DNA of 36,704 nt from Candidatus Scalinduaceae bacterium. Lineage in GTDB: Bacteria > Planctomycetota > Brocadiia > Brocadiales > Scalinduaceae. Shown here piece by piece: positions 1,612 through 10,532 of this stretch. Below the pieces are notes generated by a model, which did not search any database, was not told where the DNA came from, and saw only the letters and a program-made list of their open reading frames with translations. The DNA is taken from positions 1 to 36,704 of the forward strand of contig JBHICG010000030.1 in NCBI GenBank assembly GCA_046759445.1, read 5' to 3'. The translations under genes were made by a program, and so were the position numbers. Every line of letters begins with the position of its first letter. Positions within the stretch are counted from its first letter, which is position 1.

Positions 1612-2934
1612 CTATCTTTGCATCTCCTTAGCCCATTTTGTAATACTATCAACGTTTACGGGTTCACCACCTGTTACAATCTTGAGTTGTTTTCCTTCAA
1701 ATACTTCTTTTACTTCACCTTCTGAAGTTACCGTTGCCTTGCCCTTCGTCACTGTAACAAAAATCCTATGTTCTGATACCTTAATGTCAATATTACTGTC
1801 GTTTGCAGTTACGTTGCTGTTATTTGCCGTTATCGTAAAAGGGTTTGCGTCTGCTTTTATTGATACAAGTATTTGTCCTTTTGAAATATCAATCTTCCTT
1901 TTTCCTATGAGTTTAATTTCCGTATCTACGTCCATTATGATATGTGTGCTATCCTTTAGCAGAAAGGATGCTTTGCTGCTTTTCCCGGTTTTCAATGTGG
2001 CGCCATTGTGAATTCTGGTATTTGATGATAACGCGAGCCATCCTGTACCCTTTGCCGGAAGCATTTTAACAAGACCCGTTGTTTCTAAAAATTCTGCTTT
2101 TGCTGGAAGTGTGAGAATCAAAAATATAATGTATATTAATAGTGCGCCTGAGCCCAATAATATGTTGAATCGTATGATAGCCTTTTTTGTAGGCCTTATT
2201 ATGAGGATACCCACTTCATAAAGGGCAATCATTGGTATGGCCGTCATTACTTGTGTAAATGGATCTGGTGGTGTTATTATGGCTGCGAGAATAAACATAA
2301 TAAGGATGGCATACATGCGCCATTTAACAAAATCTTCGGCATTGAATATTCCAATTTTAGAAATGAATAACATTATAAGGGGTAGCTGAAACACGATGCC
2401 TAAAGCAAAAGTTAACAAGGAAATGAGGGTGATGTATTGACTCATCGTAATAATGGGTTGTATATTCGGTCCAAGTATCTTTATCAAGAATTGAAGACCA
2501 AACGGTATCAGGAGAAAATATCCGAAAAGTACGCCTATTATGAATGCCGTTAAGGAAATTGGAGAAAATATTTTTACATACCTGCGCTCTCTCTTATATA
2601 AACCGGTTTCGACAAATTTCCAGATTTGATATGCGATTATAGGATATGACATAAAGATGGCGGTTATTAAACATAGCTTTATGTAAGCGTAAAAACCTTC
2701 CTGGTAGCTCAGTACCTGAAGGGATGGTGATATGCCCAGGTTTTCCATGGCAAAATTATGTGGTTTCATTACGATATCCATGATTTTCGATTTGAAAATC
2801 CAGCTGATAAAGAAGAAACCAATAACGACAAGGATGGAATATATAATCCTTGATCTTAACTCTTCCAGGTGTTCACTTATGGGCAGCCTTTTTTCATCAA
2901 CTACTTTGTCTCTTTCTCTTCCGTTTTGCATCAA
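1612..2934 (-). CDS. tatC: twin-arginine translocase TatC with an extra TM helix and C-terminal FecR-like domain
   Basis: HLEELRSR, YQIWKFV..GLY..E, FQLP and AAIITPPDPFTQ..A.P...LYE motifs; about 160 extra aa (LKTGKSSKASFLLKDSTHIIMDVDTEIKL...GQILV...VTVTKGKATV) match the FecR beta-rich pattern. Confidence 0.93.
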   Translation of the reverse strand: MMQNGRERDKVVDEKRLPISEHLEELRSRIIYSILVVIGFFFISWIFKSKIMDIVMKPHNFAMENLGISPSLQVLSYQEGFYAYIKLCLITAIFMSYPIIAYQIWKFVETGLYKRERRYVKIFSPISLTAFIIGVLFGYFLLIPFGLQFLIKILGPNIQPIITMSQYITLISLLTFALGIVFQLPLIMLFISKIGIFNAEDFVKWRMYAILIMFILAAIITPPDPFTQVMTAIPMIALYEVGILIIRPTKKAIIRFNILLGSGALLIYIIFLILTLPAKAEFLETTGLVKMLPAKGTGWLALSSNTRIHNGATLKTGKSSKASFLLKDSTHIIMDVDTEIKLIGKRKIDISKGQILVSIKADANPFTITANNSNVTANDSNIDIKVSEHRIFVTVTKGKATVTSEGEVKEVFEGKQLKIVTGGEPVNVDSITKWAKEMQR

Positions 2935-2982
2935 ATATATCCTGATTAATTAAGTTTCCGCTTTTATTTTTCAGGCAAGATT

Positions 2983-3011
2983 ATAATACTAGGATAGGTA
3001 TGAAATTACAA
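2983..3011 (-). promoter_or_regulatory. candidate sigma70 promoter for tatC
   Basis: TTGTAA-17bp-TATTAT on the minus strand. Confidence 0.45.
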
Positions 3012-3065
3012 GATTCAATATAATTATCTAAGGTTTTAATACTCCAAGCGGGTATTAGAAAAGCC

Positions 3066-3094
3066 TTGCAAGGGAAATTTATTTCTGATACTAT
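3066..3094 (+). promoter_or_regulatory. sigma70 promoter for ribH
   Basis: TTGCAA-17bp-TACTAT with extended -10 TG. Confidence 0.55.
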
Positions 3095-3141
3095 CCTTTG
3101 TGAGTTATGCTTTTCTTCCTTTATGATTAGGAGATAATATC

Positions 3142-3615
3142 ATGGTTAAATCATTTGAAGGTAATTTTGTTGGTACTGGTAAGACTTTTGGTATCGTTGT
3201 TAGTCGGTTTAATAGTTTTATTACAAAGAGAATGTTAGAGGGCGCTCAGGATTGTTTAATTAGACATGGTGTAAATGATGGTGATATTGATGTGTTTTGG
3301 GTCCCAGGCTCCTGTGAAATACCAATTACGGCTATGAGACTAGCTAAAGGAGCCAGGTATAATGGTATTATCTGCTTGGGGGCAATAATACGTGGGGAAA
3401 CCCCTCATTTTGATTATGTATCCGGTGAAGCAGCCAGGGGTATTACTGAAGTTGGTCTTACAACAGGTATACCAACAATTTATGGAGTCATTACTACGGA
3501 AACACTGGAACAGGCCATAGATAGGGCTGGCGCAAGAGGCGGGAATAAGGGAGCAGAGGCAGCTCTTACGGTTTTGGAGATGGTGGATTTGTTTGATAAT
3601 ATTAAGGATGTATAA
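3142..3615 (+). CDS. ribH: 6,7-dimethyl-8-ribityllumazine synthase
   Basis: IVVSRFN, WVPGSCEIP, LGAIIRGETPHFDYV, QAIDRAG...GNKG; SD AGGAG. Confidence 0.98.
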   Translation: MVKSFEGNFVGTGKTFGIVVSRFNSFITKRMLEGAQDCLIRHGVNDGDIDVFWVPGSCEIPITAMRLAKGARYNGIICLGAIIRGETPHFDYVSGEAARGITEVGLTTGIPTIYGVITTETLEQAIDRAGARGGNKGAEAALTVLEMVDLFDNIKDV

Positions 3616-3638
3616 AAGTTCCACTTACTGTAGATTCG

Positions 3639-3784
3639 CCCTGTTAGGTGTATAATATCTAACAGGGAAACCGCTGAGATCACAGAGATGTTTAGCAAAA
3701 GTATGATAAATTATTTTGGTGAGTTTATTGAACCATCTTTGATTTTAATGTTTGCTTTGCGTGCTCTGCACACTCTGTGGTGAA
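3639..3784. repeat. intergenic palindromes: CCCTGTTAG..CTAACAGGG hairpin plus an inverted pair of CACAGAG-type repeats
   Basis: hairpin 3639-3667; AACCGCTGAGATCACAGAGA (3669-3688) faces CTTTGCGTGCTCTGCACACTCTGTGGTGAA (3755-3784). Confidence 0.65.
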
Positions 3785-3808
3785 CATTTTTATTGTGGAG
3801 ATTTGTGG

Positions 3809-5122
3809 ATGAGGAAAAGAACACGTTCTCGTGAAATTGCATTACAGGCTCTTTATCAGTTGGAGATACGCGGTGATGAAATTATAAGCGAGATAGATTC
3901 TTTTTGTAGAGAACGCGGTAAGGAACCGGTGGTGAGTGATTTTGCCATCATCTTAGTTAAAGGTTGCATTAAGTTTATGCAGGAAATCGATAAAAAGATA
4001 GTTTCTATATCAGAGAAATGGAATTTGCACAGGATGCCAGTAATAGACAGGATTATTTTAAGAATAGCGTGTTATGAGCTTCTTTATTTGAGTGATATAC
4101 CCCCTAAAGTTTCTATTAATGAGGCAATTGACCTGGCTAAAAAATACAGTACTGAGAAATCTGGTTTGTTCGTAAATGGAGTGCTGGATAAGATGTATTC
4201 ACTTTACGTAAAGAAAGATAAAAGGGTTAAAAAAGGCATCTCTAGTTTGACGGAGGTTAATTTAGAAAAGGAGAGTTACAAAGGAGCTGATTTACACATA
4301 CACACAGAATATTCTGATGGCACTATGTCACCTGAGCAGGTGGTTGAGGAAGCGCTAAAACTCAAGTTGCATACAATTGCAATAACTGATCATGATAGCA
4401 TTGATGCTATTGAAATTGCTCAGGCCATTTGTGTTGAAAAGGGATTGAATATTATTCCTGCAATAGAACTTTCATCATATTATTGTGCTGCAGATATTCA
4501 CATTTTGGGCTACTTTATAGACATAAAGAATAGCACACTATTAGAAAAATTGACTGAGTTGCGTTTTGAAAGGGTGGAGCGAATAAAGAAAATAACTAAG
4601 AAATTGGTTAGTTTGGGTGTTATTGTAGACCCGCAAGAAGTTTATGATGTTGCCGGAAAAGGGGTGCCTGGCCGAATGCACGTTGCTGATGTTTTGTGCA
4701 GAAAAGGCTATTGCAGCAGTATTCAGGAAAGCTTTCAAAGGTATTTGTCAGACAATGGTCCTGCTTTTGTTCCAAAGGTAGCATTGTCATTAGAAAATGC
4801 TATAAAACTTATAAACTCTTCAGATGGTATTTCTGTTCTTTCTCACCCAGGTACTACAAAAAGAGATGAATTAATCCCGAAGATGGTAGAATTTGGACTA
4901 CAAGGAATTGAGGTTTATTCTCCATCACAACTGGCAAATGATATAGAGAGATATATTCGATTGGCAAATGAATATGATCTTGTAATTACGGGTGGTTCAG
5001 ACTGTCATGGTGAGCGAAGACCGGATATCAGGTTGGGTAGTATAACAATAGATAATGACATAGTTGAAAAGATTAAGGAAAGACACGATAATATGATTGG
5101 TATGTTGAGTTGTAATAACTAA
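3809..5122 (+). CDS. nusB: transcription antitermination factor NusB fused to a PHP (YciV/TrpH/RNase AM-like) domain
   Basis: MRKRTRSREIALQALYQ, DRIILR, P.KVSINEAIDLAKKYS, FVNGVLD; then DLHIHT..SDG, AITDHD, HILGY, GRMHVA, SHPG, GIEVY, TGGSDCHG in one frame; SD GGAG before ATG 3809. Confidence 0.93.
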   Translation: MRKRTRSREIALQALYQLEIRGDEIISEIDSFCRERGKEPVVSDFAIILVKGCIKFMQEIDKKIVSISEKWNLHRMPVIDRIILRIACYELLYLSDIPPKVSINEAIDLAKKYSTEKSGLFVNGVLDKMYSLYVKKDKRVKKGISSLTEVNLEKESYKGADLHIHTEYSDGTMSPEQVVEEALKLKLHTIAITDHDSIDAIEIAQAICVEKGLNIIPAIELSSYYCAADIHILGYFIDIKNSTLLEKLTELRFERVERIKKITKKLVSLGVIVDPQEVYDVAGKGVPGRMHVADVLCRKGYCSSIQESFQRYLSDNGPAFVPKVALSLENAIKLINSSDGISVLSHPGTTKRDELIPKMVEFGLQGIEVYSPSQLANDIERYIRLANEYDLVITGGSDCHGERRPDIRLGSITIDNDIVEKIKERHDNMIGMLSCNN

Positions 5123-5136
5123 GGCAAGGTGAGATT

Positions 5137-6111
5137 ATGGCTTGGTTTTCAAAAAAGGGATCGGGATTGTCTACTCAAGAAGATGTGGAAGACAAATCAT
5201 TATTTCCCTTCCAAATATTGAGAAGAGGTTTAGAGAAGACACGTACAAAAATAACCTCTAGGTTTAAAGATTTATTATCATTCAGAGGGAAGATTGATGA
5301 GAGTATTTTGGAGGAATTAGAAGTTATATTAATCGAATCTGATATGGGTGTAATCCCGGCAACTAAGATTATACAGGATGTAAGAGAAGCCTGGAAATCT
5401 AAGGAAATTGAGGATACATCCGGTGTCTGCGATTTTTTAAAAGATAAGCTTAAACAAAGACTAAAGGGATTGGATGCTTCATTAAAGATTGCGCCTGTTC
5501 CACCAACGGTTATTATGGTTGCTGGCGTTAATGGTGCAGGAAAAACCACTTCAATTGCAAAGCTTGCAAATTTACATATAAAACAGGGCAAGAAAGTGAT
5601 GTTAGCGGCAAGTGATACCTACCGCGCTGCAGCTATGGAACAACTGGATATTTGGAGTAAAAGGATTGGTGCGGATATCGTGAAGCATCAAACAGGCGCT
5701 GATCCTGCGGCGGTTACTTTTGATGCACTTGAAGCTAGTTTAAGTAGAGGAATAGATGTTTTGATCGTTGATACTGCGGGACGTTTGCATACTCATGATA
5801 ATTTAATGAATGAGTTATCAAAAATAAAACGAGTAATTTCAAGAAAAATAGAAAATGCGCCTCATGAAGTTCTACTTGTTTTGGATGCTACTACTGGACA
5901 AAACGCTATTTCACAGGCAAAACTATTCAAGCGAGCGGTTGATATTACAGGGATATTTTTATCAAAACTTGATGGAACCGCTAAGGGTGGTGCCATTTTA
6001 GGTATGCATGATGAGATAGATATACCAGTAAAATTTATTGGTTTAGGCGAAGGCGCTGATGATATTCAGGAGTTTGATGCAAATAAGTTTGTGGATGTAT
6101 TATTTGATTAG
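5137..6111 (+). CDS. ftsY: signal recognition particle receptor FtsY
   Basis: GVNGAGKTT, DTYRAAA, DTAGRLH, DATTGQN, KLDGTAKGG. Confidence 0.98.
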   Translation: MAWFSKKGSGLSTQEDVEDKSLFPFQILRRGLEKTRTKITSRFKDLLSFRGKIDESILEELEVILIESDMGVIPATKIIQDVREAWKSKEIEDTSGVCDFLKDKLKQRLKGLDASLKIAPVPPTVIMVAGVNGAGKTTSIAKLANLHIKQGKKVMLAASDTYRAAAMEQLDIWSKRIGADIVKHQTGADPAAVTFDALEASLSRGIDVLIVDTAGRLHTHDNLMNELSKIKRVISRKIENAPHEVLLVLDATTGQNAISQAKLFKRAVDITGIFLSKLDGTAKGGAILGMHDEIDIPVKFIGLGEGADDIQEFDANKFVDVLFD

Positions 6112-6185
6112 ATGAAAAAAGCAGATCATTTCTTTTGCAATTGTTTTTTTCTTCCCAAATATCATCAAGTAAAAATACAAAATTC

Positions 6186-6624
6186 GCACGGAGACACAAA
6201 GCCACAAAGAAAATGAGTGAAAACGAAATTGGAAAAATTGTTGTTGACAGTGCTGTTTGCCTGCATAAGGAGCTTGGGCCTGGACTTCTTGAATCTGTCT
6301 ATGAAGTGCTACTCTCCTATGAATTGCAATCGAGAGGTTTGAAATTAAAGCGGCAGGTTTCAATCCCAATAGAGTACCGTGGAATTAAATTTGATGAAGG
6401 CTTCAAAGCTGATATAATTGTAGAGAACAAAGTGATTCTAGAACTCAAATCGGTCGAGACAGCTTCAAAGGCACACAAGAAACAGGTATTAACATATTTA
6501 AAATTGACTGGAATGAAACTGGGATATTTGTTGAATTTTGGAGAATCTCTGATGAAGGATGGAATCACAAGACTGCTTAACGGGGAAATTTGATAAATAT
6601 CTCCGTGGCTTTGTGGCTTTGTGC
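6186..6624. mobile_element. GxxExxY gene bracketed by 25-bp inverted repeats
   Basis: GCACGGAGACACAAAGCCACAAAGA (6186-6210) and TCTCCGTGGCTTTGTGGCTTTGTGC (6600-6624), each made of three 8-bp units; mobility is inferred. Confidence 0.55.
6213..6593 (+). CDS. GxxExxY family protein (PD-(D/E)XK nuclease-like)
   Basis: LHKELGPGLLESVYE, ADIIVENKVILELKS, HKKQVLTYLKL, LGYLLNFG. Confidence 0.95.
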   Translation: MSENEIGKIVVDSAVCLHKELGPGLLESVYEVLLSYELQSRGLKLKRQVSIPIEYRGIKFDEGFKADIIVENKVILELKSVETASKAHKKQVLTYLKLTGMKLGYLLNFGESLMKDGITRLLNGEI

Positions 6625-6673
6625 AAGAAATAAACGAAATTTTCAGAAAACGTGTTTTTAATCCTCCTACATT

Positions 6674-7660
6674 ATGAAAAATAATATCTCAAGAAGGTCT
6701 TTTCTCAAAACTAGTGTTTCCATTGGTGCAGGACTTTGTGGTTTGTCATATTTGAGTTCAATTGAAAGACCGAGGCACTTAAAGGGGTTAAAGGAAAATA
6801 GTTTTAAAAAAGATCTGGTTATAGTACATGGTGACATTGATGAAAGAAATGATGAAGTTTCTGTTATAAAGGAAATGTTGCGTAGAGGAATTAAGGTCCT
6901 TGGCGGCATGGAAAAACTGGTATCGAAGGGGGATAAAATTGTGATCAAACCTAATATAGCATGGGACAGGCAACCTGAGTATGCAGTGAATACGAATCCC
7001 TTTGTTGTTGCTGCATTGGTTGAGCTGTGTAGAGAGGCTGGAGCATATAGAGTAAAAGTTCTTGATCATACTTGCTCGACGAACCCGGGACCGTCGTACA
7101 TTAATAGTGGAATCGAAAAAGCTGCAAGAGAAGCGGGTGCAGACGTAAGGTTTATTAATAAGAAGTTATTTAAAGATGTTAGGATAGAAGACGGTAAAGT
7201 ACTTGATTCATGGTTGTTTTATGAGGAATTGATATACCAGGATGAGATTGATGTATTGATTAATGTTCCTATAGCTAAACAGCATAGCACTTCGCGTTTA
7301 TCTATGGCCCTTAAAAACACATTGGGAATGGTAGGTGGCAATAGGGGTTTACTTCACAAGGATATACATCCAAAAATAGCAGATCTTAATAAAGTTGTTA
7401 AGGTCGACCTTACGGTACTTGATGCATTTAGAATTTTAAAGCGACATGGGCCTACAGGAGGAAGATTAGAAGATGTTGATAATACCTTTGAAAATGCGAG
7501 AAGATTAGTAATAAGTACGGACCCCGTAGCGGTAGATTCTTATGGCGCTACTATGTTCGGATATGAAGGTAAGGACATAGGTTTTATCCAGGAATCGTAT
7601 GAGGCTGGATTGGGAGAAATCGATTTTAAATTAAGTGGCTTTGAAGAAATAAGTATTTAA
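6674..7660 (+). CDS. DUF362 domain protein with Tat signal
   Basis: ISRRSFLK; VIKPNI, NTNP..V, INVPIAKQH, ALKNTLG, DPVAVD. Confidence 0.9.
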   Translation: MKNNISRRSFLKTSVSIGAGLCGLSYLSSIERPRHLKGLKENSFKKDLVIVHGDIDERNDEVSVIKEMLRRGIKVLGGMEKLVSKGDKIVIKPNIAWDRQPEYAVNTNPFVVAALVELCREAGAYRVKVLDHTCSTNPGPSYINSGIEKAAREAGADVRFINKKLFKDVRIEDGKVLDSWLFYEELIYQDEIDVLINVPIAKQHSTSRLSMALKNTLGMVGGNRGLLHKDIHPKIADLNKVVKVDLTVLDAFRILKRHGPTGGRLEDVDNTFENARRLVISTDPVAVDSYGATMFGYEGKDIGFIQESYEAGLGEIDFKLSGFEEISI

Positions 7661-7731: not shown

Positions 7732-8067
7732 TTAGCTATTAAAATTCTTTTCCTTATTTGATCGCTTTTCTTGTTTCCAGATTGTATTTAGATCACGTGC
7801 CCCATGAATAAATCCGATTATATAAACGGTCCCCTCAGCCACTTGGTATATCATCCTATAACTTCTCACAAATATTTCATGAATATTCTGATTGTTTAAC
7901 TCAGGCACTATTCGTCCTCGTTCAGCAAAATTAGTTAATGAACGTGCAGCATCTCGTGCCTCACGAACAAATGCAGCAGCGTAATAAGGTGAATCCTTAG
8001 CAATATGGTTTGCAACTTCCTCAAGGTCACTCCATGCTACATTAGTCCATTTTACTTTCCAAGCCAT
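7732..8067 (-). CDS. RelE/ParE family toxin
   Basis: KVKWT..AWSDLEEV..HIAKDSP.YA, ERGRIVPE, YRMIY, FIHGARDL. Confidence 0.92.
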   Translation of the reverse strand: MAWKVKWTNVAWSDLEEVANHIAKDSPYYAAAFVREARDAARSLTNFAERGRIVPELNNQNIHEIFVRSYRMIYQVAEGTVYIIGFIHGARDLNTIWKQEKRSNKEKNFNS

Positions 8068-8240
8068 TTGGACATCCTTCGCTCAACTTCTTCATGATCT
8101 AAGACACGGCCTTCTTCAATATCTTTCAGCCCAAGTCGAATCTTTTCCTGAACATAAATGTGATATTGAATATCTTCATACGAAGCATTATCAGGAATCT
8201 GATCAAGCATTTTCCTTATGTTTTCTTTTGCCGTAACCAT
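8052..8240 (-). CDS. antitoxin of the RelE/ParE pair
   Basis: AKE...LDQIPDNASYEDIQYHIYV..KI..GLKDIEEGRV..HEEV; SD GGAGGT; overlaps the toxin start. Confidence 0.88.
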   Translation of the reverse strand: MVTAKENIRKMLDQIPDNASYEDIQYHIYVQEKIRLGLKDIEEGRVLDHEEVERRMSKWLGK

Positions 8241-8456
8241 ATCCACCTCCAGTTAAATTATCTGTGCCAAAAATACTTTTATTATAGAAAAAATGAATTT
8301 TATCTTTTATTTGTTCCTTTTCAATAGATTTTATTGAAAGGATAAAAGAATTTAAAAATTTTAACTTATCATAATTATCCTGTAAATTCAGTCTAAATTT
8401 CTTTTGCATATTCATATGATTGAAAAAATACACCTAATATCGATATTTAAGATGTG

Positions 8457-8826
8457 TTAATTATTCTCCAACGATAAAATAGGCAACCCCCTATTATTGT
8501 CTAGATTTACGATCTGGAATTTAGACGATTTAATAGGGACAGCTGTCCCTATTTTCCTTTCCTCACCTATCGCCAAATATAGAGCAGCTTTAGCAGCCAT
8601 TTGGACGGAAAGGAGAATTGGATGATGTCTTTTCATGATTGGAGAGGGATGGGGAATGGCCAATTCCATTGCAATCCGATTAGCAATGGCTTCCTCAAGA
8701 CAGTCAGCAGCCTCGACAATGGCACCCCTTAGTTCTAATTGCTTCCGGTAAATCAGGAAAAGTAACAACAAAGCCAGCATCTTTTTTGTCCCGGGTGATT
8801 TTAGCTGGATAAATAAAATTTTCCAT
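8457..8826 (-). pseudogene. hicB: HicB antitoxin pseudogene
   Basis: MENFIYPAKIT...GFVVTFPDLPEAI from ATG 8826, frameshift, then EAADCLEEAIA.RI.....IP.PS...AAKAALYLA; breaks off at the 8532-8553 palindrome, so the C-terminal DNA-binding part is missing. Confidence 0.85.
8532..8553. repeat. 22-bp perfect palindrome (REP-like)
   Basis: AATAGGGACAGCTGTCCCTATT; related degenerate copies near 8476-8498, 1455-1475 and 10666-10693. Confidence 0.8.
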
Positions 8827-8829
8827 TTT

Positions 8830-8897
8830 TTACTCCTTAAGATCGTTTAATGAAAGTCCAAGTTGGTCGATCATTGCGTGTAATGTACCATCTGTAA
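8830..8897 (-). pseudogene. hicA: 3' remnant of HicA toxin
   Basis: TDGTLHAMIDQLGLSLNDLKE* directly upstream of the hicB start; 5' part absent. Confidence 0.65.
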
Positions 8898-8986
8898 GAG
8901 AATAAGGGTGGGATTACCTTGGCCTACTCGACTTAATCATGTCTAAAAAATTGAAATTTGTGCCGAAAATAATTATTCACTATTCA

Positions 8987-9174
8987 ACAGGTTGTCCGAG
9001 AACTGTCATTCCGCTCCCATTCCTAGCTTACGCAAGGAAGCTATGGGGGGCAGAATCTAAAACCTCTGTAAATACTTATAATTATAGATTCTGACCCCGC
9101 TTCTTGCTTTCGCAAGAAAGCAGTGGGGTCAGAATGACAAAAATGACGCTTTTGCTAATTCTCGGACAACCTGT
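8987..9174. mobile_element. 188-bp MITE-like element with nested palindromes
   Basis: perfect 16-bp TIR ACAGGTTGTCCGAGAA / TTCTCGGACAACCTGT; internal GTCATTC..GAATC / GATTC..GAATGAC pair. Confidence 0.75.
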
Positions 9175-9359
9175 CAAGACGTGACCATCTCTCCTCCAAC
9201 GCAAATACCTTGCAACAAGAATTATTTTCTGCTCATTTTTCTTGCATATTAAGGCTGATGTAAAATCAGAAGGCTGATGGTGTAATTCTTCGAATTAACT
9301 TAACCAGAAGGCAACGGATTCATATTAAATGATATGCAACCCTGAACATTCCTATTCGT

Positions 9360-9664
9360 TCACTTGATTTTCTTTTTTGGTATTAAAGATAGAAACTCAA
9401 GTTTAATCCCATAAGATTTTTCTCCAAGCAAACAGTCTTTGAAGAAGATTAGATCTTCTTGAGCGGTATCAAATCTTTCATCTTCATCATGTAAGAGAGA
9501 GAGCGCGCTGTTATAGCATCCTCTATCAGAATATCCTCCACATGAAAATATTCCTCTGTTAACTTCTTTATTGCCTATGCAGAAGCTTCTCCTTTTGAAA
9601 CTTTACCTTTAAGATAATCATTAGTTTTCTCGACAACCTCTTTCCCCCCCCCTACCTTACACAT
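9360..9664 (-). pseudogene. degraded ~100-aa hypothetical gene
   Basis: ATG 9664 with G-rich SD; MCKVGGGKEVVEKTNDYLKGKVSKGEASA*AIKKL..., in-frame TAG at 9575-9577 and a frameshift at a (GA)n tract near 9500, then LHDEDERFDTAQEDLIFFKDCLLGEK. Confidence 0.45.
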
Positions 9665-9849
9665 ATTATTCGCACCCCCATAATTGTATCACGAGACATC
9701 ATTGAAAGGGAATTGTAAAGAGATAAAAGTTGGCTGATGTAGGTTTGGCAGTTTTTCCTAAACATTATGTCAAAGACGAAAAAAATGTAATAAATGAAAG
9801 ATGACCCAACTTGTTGAATAAATTAGTTTTTGTCATATTGGTTTTCTAC

Positions 9850-10532
9850 TTAAATGTTACTTTTAGCGCAAATTTCCTTAAATTGACAATCTTTAATATC
9901 CTTAAACTGCAGTCCAATACCTGGAACACACATATTTTTACCCCAATCATTCTTCCATAGTACTTGCCCTCGTATAGGTGTTTTGTCCTTTAATTCCTTA
10001 ATGATAAACCAAGCATCATTACCTACTCCCAGTTACTACTTGAAAAAATAAAACATCCTCCTAGATCAATATTCATTATTACAGTCTTCTCATAATCTCC
10101 AGAACTCACGTTCTTACTTTTAGACAAAATAACGTTAAAGTTAATATCTCTTCTAAGATTAGATCGAATTATCCTTGCACTAAAAGAACAACATTGTTGA
10201 GTTATGAAATTATCTAATGTCCCACTCCCTTTAACTTTGCCAATGTAAAGCGTTCTTATTTGTCCAGATTTCATATCAAAAGTAAGTTGTATTACAGGAT
10301 AATGTTCAAATATATTCTGAGCCCTCCCTTTTTCATCACTATGACTTCTTATTTTTGTTAGCATGTCAATCATCAATCCATTATAGGGCATACCGACAAT
10401 TACTTTGAAAAGCTCTTTGAATGATGAAACAACATCTACTCGGGCTCCTAACTTTTTACTTGCATCCAAATATTTTTGTCTGGCGCTTCCTTTTTTGCAA
10501 ACAAGTAATATCCTAACACTCATTAAGAACAC
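9850..10532 (-). pseudogene. receiver-like + PilZ domain protein, frameshifted
   Basis: RSNLR and NIDLGGCFI motifs; after a 1-nt frameshift near 10026 the frame continues VGNDAWFIIKELKDKTPIRGQVLW..WG...PGIGLQF to TAA at 9850. Confidence 0.8.

Follow-up and report, generated by a model that had tools for sequence, protein, structure and literature searches.

What does a transcription antitermination factor do with a metal-dependent hydrolase on its C-terminus? The question arises from a contig stretch of 36,704 nucleotides assigned to a Candidatus Scalinduaceae bacterium (Planctomycetota, class Brocadiia; contig JBHICG010000030.1; "the window" below means this whole stretch), in which a single uninterrupted plus-strand frame of 437 codons plus stop, 3809..5122 in the open reading frame (ORF) list and its translation, encodes NusB, a linker and a PHP phosphoesterase domain. 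An earlier note, made from the nucleotide sequence alone, had described this three-part protein at the ribH-nusB locus, and the ORF list, the translation and Pfam bear the description out. Judged from its homologues, the architecture is lineage-specific yet old and is conserved across class Brocadiia, in the anammox bacteria and lineages akin to them. By its domain content, the product reads as a genuine bifunctional protein, and the gene is divided as follows.

3809..5122, plus strand: nusB::PHP fusion gene (ORF list, translation, Pfam and NCBIfam, with 220 full-length homologues aligned)
3809..4198, plus strand: NusB domain, amino acids (aa) 1-130 (TIGR01951, 135 bits; Foldseek template modelling (TM) scores of 0.82-0.90)
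4199..4285, plus strand: linker, aa 131-159, a helical extension followed by a disordered polar segment (predicted local distance difference test score, pLDDT, < 50 at aa 143-154)
4286..5119, plus strand: PHP phosphoesterase domain of the YciV/TrpH (COG0613) type, aa 160-437 (Pfam, NCBIfam, phmmer, alignment and Foldseek)
4526..4813, plus strand: PHP insertion lobe, ~aa 240-335, which carries the 5'-phosphate pocket and the stacking Phe (by equivalence to E. coli RNase AM)

The fusion recurs widely among relatives. A scan of genome contigs returned 38 loci, 12 of which (L001-L012, at 67-75% identity) encode NusB and PHP in one frame; these are named Scalindua, Scalinduaceae, Brocadiaceae or Planctomycetota, and L012 is cut by a contig end. 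When the window protein (P0001) was used as query, both Pfam domains were found in 120/120 protein matches listed, some of them on contigs of 2.9-4.1 Mb, under names that include Scalindua, Brocadia, Brocadiales and Hypogeohydataceae, the last of which is its own order within Brocadiia in the NCBI taxonomy. A distant fusion (P0124) as query gave both domains in 110 of the 120 matches listed, from Planctomycetota, Brocadiia and Brocadiaceae. Fusions range down to ~35% identity with both domains kept. In the ESM Atlas, P0001 retrieved two NusB+PHP clusters (64 and 61 members), both from Planctomycetota, and another query, P0138, retrieved generic PHP clusters only. A library of representatives at 50% identity contains 31,197 proteins that match at E <= 0.001, and the best 150 of these comprise 7 fusions, 2 N-terminal fragments and 141 stand-alone PHP proteins (215-305 aa, 36-46% identity). 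Two short entries, P0128 and P0239, were set aside as apparently broken or chimeric fragments.

Is the N-terminal part a true NusB? Pfam NusB matches aa 6-130 (E 6.5e-36), and the NCBIfam nusB equivalog TIGR01951 scores P0001 at 135 bits, above its cut-off of 88.35, which the distant fusions P0110 (138.1 bits) and P0124 (130.6 bits) also pass. For residue comparisons, 239 candidate fusions were considered and the 220 of 400-500 aa were taken as full-length. In E. coli NusB, Y18 lies at the NusE interface, F122 stacks on boxA, and F122 and E81 bind U8 (PMC3177189). The fusion equivalents of Y18, E81, K101 and F122 are Tyr16, Asp80, Lys100 and Phe121. Position 16, at the NusE interface, is Tyr in 212/220 fusions (8 gaps); the boxA-stacking position 121 is Phe in 215 and Tyr in 5; the acidic position 80 that would read U8 is Asp in 215 and Glu in 5; and Lys100 is retained in 210. 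The AlphaFold2 model has an all-helical NusB fold with pLDDT > 88 over aa 1-130, and Foldseek aligns this half at TM 0.82-0.90 to 1tzw, 3r2c_B and 3d3b_A, with 0.90 to the NusB of the NusB-NusE-boxA complex. On these comparisons, the N-terminal module is an orthodox NusB that keeps the predicted S10/NusE-pairing and boxA-stacking determinants. The N-terminus is Arg-rich, and most fusions have Lys or Asn where E. coli NusB has D118. P0121, a fusion variant of 386 aa, is missing the final two helices of NusB and with them the Phe that stacks on boxA, yet its PHP domain is intact; an assembly defect or degeneration of the NusB module may explain this.

The C-terminal part is likewise preserved at its active site. 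Pfam PHP matches aa 161-222 (E 1.3e-11), accompanied by a weak PHP_C match, and aa 160-412 align end to end with the NCBIfam models of RNase Rnm and of the 3',5'-nucleoside bisphosphate (pNp) phosphatase. E. coli RNase AM binds three Mn ions through H13, H15, D20, H45, E72, H83, H198, D255 and H257, holds a buried 5'-phosphate with R107, R110 and R141, and stacks F161 on the base (PMC9410882). It is through this buried pocket that RNase AM and Cv1693 act on nucleotides with a 5'-phosphate. The metal ligands of the fusion are H163, H165, D170, H195, E220, H231, H346, D398 and H400, its pocket is R255, R258 and R289, and its stacking residue is F309; all 13 positions are invariant in 220/220 full-length fusions. 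Every motif that the earlier note had named is in the translation (HIH 163-165, TDHD 192-195, HILGY 231-235, GRMH 288-291, SHPG 345-348 and GGSDCHG 395-401). A phmmer search matches the domain to Cv1693 at E 3.4e-25, and Foldseek gives TM 0.86 to 3e0f (a B. adolescentis phosphoesterase), 0.85 to 9etk (V. cholerae RNase AM), 0.85 to 2yb1 (Cv1693) and 0.83 to E. coli RNase AM. Models, motifs and structure comparison thus uphold the YciV/TrpH affinity proposed for the domain, which we read as an intact three-metal PHP phosphoesterase of that family belonging to neither curated equivalog. To judge from their sequences, both modules are under selection.

The segment between the two modules has a different character. 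It is 29 aa long in the window fusion and 15-57 aa (median 30) across the 220 fusions, where mean column conservation is 0.25 in the linker, 0.66 in NusB and 0.61 in PHP. Inspection of the linker sequence found no in-frame ATG, GTG or TTG bearing a Shine-Dalgarno sequence. The AlphaFold2 model, computed with 94 fusions in the alignment, has a mean pLDDT of 93 and a predicted TM score (pTM) of 0.67, and pLDDT falls below 50 only at aa 143-154. The model suggests two confident domains without a fixed mutual orientation, joined by a flexible tether. No solved chain found by Foldseek spans both halves of the fusion.

The surroundings of the gene are also conserved, and the relevant features of the window are these.

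3797..3800, plus strand: GGAG, a Shine-Dalgarno-like motif 8 nt before ATG 3809, read from the sequence
3142..3615, plus strand: ribH (6,7-dimethyl-8-ribityllumazine synthase), the upstream neighbour (Pfam DMRL_synthase, E 1.3e-54)
5137..6111, plus strand: ftsY (signal recognition particle receptor), the downstream neighbour (Pfam SRP54 and SRP54_N)

The longest formal ORF begins at TTG 3752; we take ATG 3809 as the start because, in alignments with homologues of 433-440 aa, the match begins at residue 1. The stop codon is 5120-5122, and ftsY begins 15 nt beyond it, probably in one operon with the fusion. The order ribH-fusion-ftsY is kept in L001-L011. Further, ribH lies immediately 5' of the fusion or of nusB in all of L001-L012, L013 and L038, and ftsY lies 3' of a stand-alone nusB in L038. 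A promoter and terminator scan of 2900-6700 gave counts equal to the shuffle level. There is no second NusB, no rpsJ and no sulfate-assimilation gene within the 36.7-kb window. Just downstream of ftsY is a small PD-(D/E)XK_3 (PF13366) protein at 6135-6593 on the plus strand; in locus L017, a PF13366 protein (5516-5893) also immediately precedes a stand-alone PHP gene, which may be coincidence.

Are the two modules ever found as separate genes? In L013, named "uncultured Planctomycetia bacterium", the order is ribBA-ribH-nusB-PHP-ribD, with a nusB of 141 aa and a PHP gene of 277 aa. At 6001-7275 of that locus the two genes are in the same frame, parted by TAG (6424), TAA (6436) and 15 nt. We count this gene-neighbour version of the NusB and PHP pair in favour of a working partnership. 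The locus is a couple of stop codons away from a single fused frame, and its PHP gene overlaps the ribD start (7251). A Phycisphaerales locus (L038) has ribH-nusB-ftsY and no PHP. Stand-alone NusBs that are 55-67% identical came up in a search for short proteins; two lie on contigs of 0.43 and 5.1 Mb, and two carry the name Ca. Anammoxibacter, a member of Brocadiales. Two PHP-only entries of a high-GC clade (P0359 and P0362) begin with a Met just before the HxH motif, sit on short contigs and are possibly gene-calling artefacts. The earlier note had held that close relatives with two separate genes would speak against a real fusion; separate genes were found in distant relatives only, and they imply no artefact.

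Stand-alone PHP genes in other phyla offer a view of what the enzyme family may do. Of 24 such loci, 20 were considered (71 of 89 neighbouring ORFs), after removal of near-duplicates (L022, L024, L028), of L034, which is short, and of four ORFs at the outer edges. The PHP gene adjoins YmdB (L014, L025) or RNase Y (L026, L029) in 4/20 loci; these belong to Bacillota and Dehalococcoidia and place PHP beside an rny (RNase Y), ymdB and spoVS cluster. This arrangement hints at an RNA-decay role for the non-proteobacterial stand-alone family. Single loci have ATP sulfurylase and APS kinase next to the PHP gene (L017), a PHP gene followed directly by ribH (L016, Bacteroidota), or a SpoU-type methylase beside it (L031). 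From the neighbours in these 20 loci, the context of the family appears to be mostly RNA or nucleotide turnover. Two residues differ sharply in frequency between fused and stand-alone PHP domains: Tyr224 (nt 4478-4480) is present in 98% of the fused and 7% of the stand-alone domains, and Cys302 (nt 4712-4714) in 91% and 6%.

Phylogeny is compatible with a single origin of the fusion. A FastTree PHP tree, in which every second one of 139 stand-alone representatives was included, placed all 47 fusion representatives in one 57-row clade (support 99) along with 10 stand-alone PHPs, and left the L013 protein outside. Resolution was poor in an IQ-TREE mixture tree (56 rows, 7/53 branches starred). 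In approximately unbiased (AU) tests, a single clade of fused PHPs was not rejected (log-likelihood of the constrained tree +21.7 versus the free tree, p-AU 0.84), nor was one that includes L013 (+17.4, p-AU 0.78); such non-rejection does not prove one clade. In these trees E. coli Rnm is remote from the fused PHPs, which are nested in a wide array of stand-alone PHPs belonging to Bacillota, Acidobacteriota, Bacteroidota, Chloroflexota and archaea.

So, why is the hydrolase attached to NusB? We propose, with a probability of roughly 0.45, that the fusion tethers a 5'-phosphate-dependent hydrolase to boxA-bound NusB, where it would act on nascent precursor ribosomal RNA (pre-rRNA). The NusB-NusE pair stays anchored to boxA while 16S rRNA loops out of the polymerase (PMC10250234), and RNase AM removes the last 5' nucleotides of 5S, 16S and 23S rRNA (Jain 2020, PMC7261194). 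In the proposed mechanism, NusB would remain on boxA of the rRNA leader and spacer at the transcribing polymerase, so that the tethered hydrolase would stay at most a few nanometres from the leader-trailer region, the place at which endonucleases make 5'-monophosphate ends. There the hydrolase could work co-transcriptionally and in the 5'->3' direction, either trimming the 5' ends of pre-rRNA or removing leader and spacer fragments once they have been excised. The architecture suggests, and does not prove, a physical coupling of rRNA synthesis and processing. A fuller version, which we advance tentatively and consider rather unlikely in its particulars, is that Brocadiia have built 5'-end processing into the antitermination complex, with the PHP exonuclease taking boxA-adjacent 5'-monophosphate ends during transcription and thereby either maturing rRNA or degrading leader and spacer so that NusB recycles. 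If true, this would be a co-transcriptional processing machine without counterpart in E. coli or B. subtilis.

Several observations weigh against such tethered processing. The coupling is itself something that we infer, and in E. coli RNase AM does its work at a late stage, on ribosomal particles and not co-transcriptionally (PMC7261194). The fused PHP scores 158 bits on the RNase Rnm equivalog NF047791, short of the cut-off of 375 and of the 505.9 bits of the E. coli Rnm control. It also misses the cut-off of 400 of the pNp-phosphatase equivalog NF041577, yet its 172 bits there exceed its Rnm score; the non-proteobacterial PHP relatives tested all score 130-240 bits. E. coli Arg201, which contacts a scissile-phosphate mimic, aligns to a gap in 219/220 fusions; the sequence around the gap reads HPG-TTKR, and basic residues follow 2-3 positions on. 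The unconserved linker and a pTM of only 0.67 give no sign of a co-evolved interface, and only two positions, Y224 and C302, tell fused from stand-alone PHP domains. Split or stand-alone nusB genes in related lineages indicate that the fusion is dispensable there, and 13 stand-alone NusBs (125-151 aa) group beside the Brocadia-type fusions with a Shimodaira-Hasegawa-like support of 96 (FastTree, 143 columns). In other phyla, no nusB occurs within 6 kb of any of the 24 stand-alone PHP loci. Finally, Rfam gave 0 matches on the 36.7-kb window, which thus supplied no rRNA operon or boxA for inspection. The earlier proposal, that a nuclease held at the rrn antitermination complex serves 5'-end maturation, stays compatible with the retained residues of both domains, the flexible tether and the L013 gene pair, and is weakened by the 158 versus 375 bits, the late action of RNase AM and the unfused relatives.

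The main rival dispenses with mechanistic coupling. Here the PHP domain would be a general phosphatase of adenosine 3',5'-bisphosphate (pAp; CysQ is a member of the IMPase family), a hydrolase of nanoRNA or diribonucleotides, or both, acting on free nucleotides, and the fusion of operon neighbours would only ensure co-expression with a growth-rate-linked gene. We regard this as possible, if doubtful. It draws on the pNp-phosphatase model being the best NCBIfam match of every fused PHP tested (172-185 bits, versus 158-175 for Rnm), and on RNase AM being itself a diribonuclease and oligoribonuclease that degrades short oligonucleotides (PMC11528712). In L017 the neighbours of the stand-alone PHP gene are ATP sulfurylase and APS kinase, the pathway that makes pAp; the window fusion has no sulfate-assimilation genes around it. 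The flexible and unconserved linker, the pTM of 0.67, the mere two fusion-specific residues and the existence of split or unfused relatives all fit a passive fusion. However, a neutral fusion should break more often, and this one persists to ~35% identity with intact domains. The nusB-PHP pair of L013, in another downstream context (ribD rather than ftsY), also argues for selection on the pairing.

A second rival turns to the upstream neighbour and makes the PHP domain a riboflavin-pathway phosphatase that takes the 5'-phosphate off the ribitylamino-pyrimidine intermediate and stands beside nusB only by way of the rib cluster. In model organisms HAD phosphatases perform this dephosphorylation. 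The PHP gene of L013 is inside ribBA-ribH-nusB-PHP-ribD, the stand-alone PHP of L016 directly precedes ribH, and the fusion itself follows ribH. We nevertheless consider this improbable: the nucleotide 5'-phosphate pocket of three Arg and the base-stacking Phe are invariant in the fusions, and a rib gene is the neighbour in only 1/20 stand-alone loci. The ribH-nusB adjacency also occurs in E. coli with no PHP there, and the rib link is therefore explained by the position of nusB itself.

A third rival, with odds we rate slightly lower again, would have the PHP domain serve as a structural subunit, a SuhB-like scaffold of the antitermination complex in which catalysis is irrelevant. SuhB, a protein of phosphatase fold that NusB/E requires in E. 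coli to be stably integrated, is a precedent (PMC6614801). A pure scaffold, however, would have no need of nine metal ligands and pocket residues that are invariant in 220/220 fusions. The PHP and SuhB folds are unrelated, and a fusion-specific surface was not found beyond the two residues. The last candidate, an artefact of sequencing or assembly error or of a recent frameshift joining two genes by chance, is ruled out because the one-frame fusion recurs in 12 independent loci and > 200 protein clusters, some on megabase contigs.

Tethered processing of pre-rRNA, if correct, would bear on how rRNA transcription, folding and end-trimming are coordinated in bacteria (PMC10250234 and PMC7261194). 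NusB and RNase AM-type enzymes have so far been studied separately; from a covalent NusB-hydrolase link kept throughout a class one can predict which processing activity travels with the rRNA transcription complex. It also indicates a possible role for the large and mostly uncharacterised group of stand-alone PHPs outside Proteobacteria. Our literature search found no description of a NusB-PHP domain fusion, in agreement with the earlier remark that no characterised example was known. Databases name the fusion proteins "transcription antitermination factor NusB", "putative phosphotransferase" or "metal-dependent phosphoesterases". We conclude that this is a new domain architecture made from known kinds of module, with its function unproven. 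Should the fusion be passive, it would be an annotation curiosity that still helps to correct database names.

Other features of the window lie outside this argument. A 440-aa ORF at 1612-2934 on the minus strand combines TatC (aa 21-234, E 2.4e-63) with a C-terminal FecR-type domain (aa 313-400, E 5.4e-10), which is unusual for a Tat core subunit. On the minus strand at 7732-8067 is a ParE-family toxin ORF (E 4.5e-15), and small ORFs at 8203-8780 could include its antitoxin. Within the ORF-poor interval 8780-10020, positions 8925-9250 on the plus strand hold ~300 nt of nested inverted repeats, with a minimum free energy of -108.5 kcal/mol against -61.9 +/- 5.0 kcal/mol for shuffled sequence (z = -9.2) and no Rfam match. 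This may be a structured RNA or the relic of a mobile element.

How does the fusion compare with known systems? Its closest characterised counterparts on the enzyme side are the RNase AM (Rnm/YciV/TrpH) proteins of E. coli (7UG9) and V. cholerae (9ETK), which share the PHP fold with its insertion lobe (TM 0.83-0.85). The nine metal ligands, three pocket Arg and stacking Phe of the E. coli enzyme are identical in the fusion; overall the fusion PHP is only ~24-31% identical, scores 158 bits where the E. coli protein scores 506, and has no equivalent of Arg201. The E. coli rnm gene is separate and far from nusB, whereas the PHP of Brocadiia is fused to NusB. Cv1693 of Chromobacterium violaceum (2YB1), the 3',5'-nucleoside bisphosphate phosphatase of NF041577, has the same fold and active site (TM 0.85). 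Unlike the fusion, it is a stand-alone enzyme; the fusion reaches 172 bits against the cut-off of 400, and the window provides no sulfur-assimilation context.

On the antitermination side, the canonical NusB proteins of E. coli, T. maritima and A. aeolicus (3D3B, 1TZW and 3R2C) have the same fold, the ribH-nusB locus and the equivalents of Y18, F122, E81 and K101. The fusion adds to this a C-terminal extension of ~300 residues with an enzyme domain. Joining a PHP enzyme to a component of rRNA maturation has a parallel in some deltaproteobacteria, in which RNase AM paralogues are fused to RNase III (Jain 2020, PMC7261194); there the partner is an endonuclease rather than a transcription factor. 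The nearest parallel in design is the RsmB/Sun 16S rRNA methyltransferase, in which a NusB-fold RNA-binding module is likewise followed by an rRNA-directed enzyme. The analogy to RsmB, drawn in the earlier note, is fair: RsmB models match aa 5-137 of the fusion, although far below their cut-offs (best 57 bits versus 319), and the fusion has no methyltransferase domain. Where RsmB has a NusB-like fold and a methyltransferase, the Brocadiia protein has a true nusB equivalog as its N-terminal module and a phosphoesterase as its enzyme.

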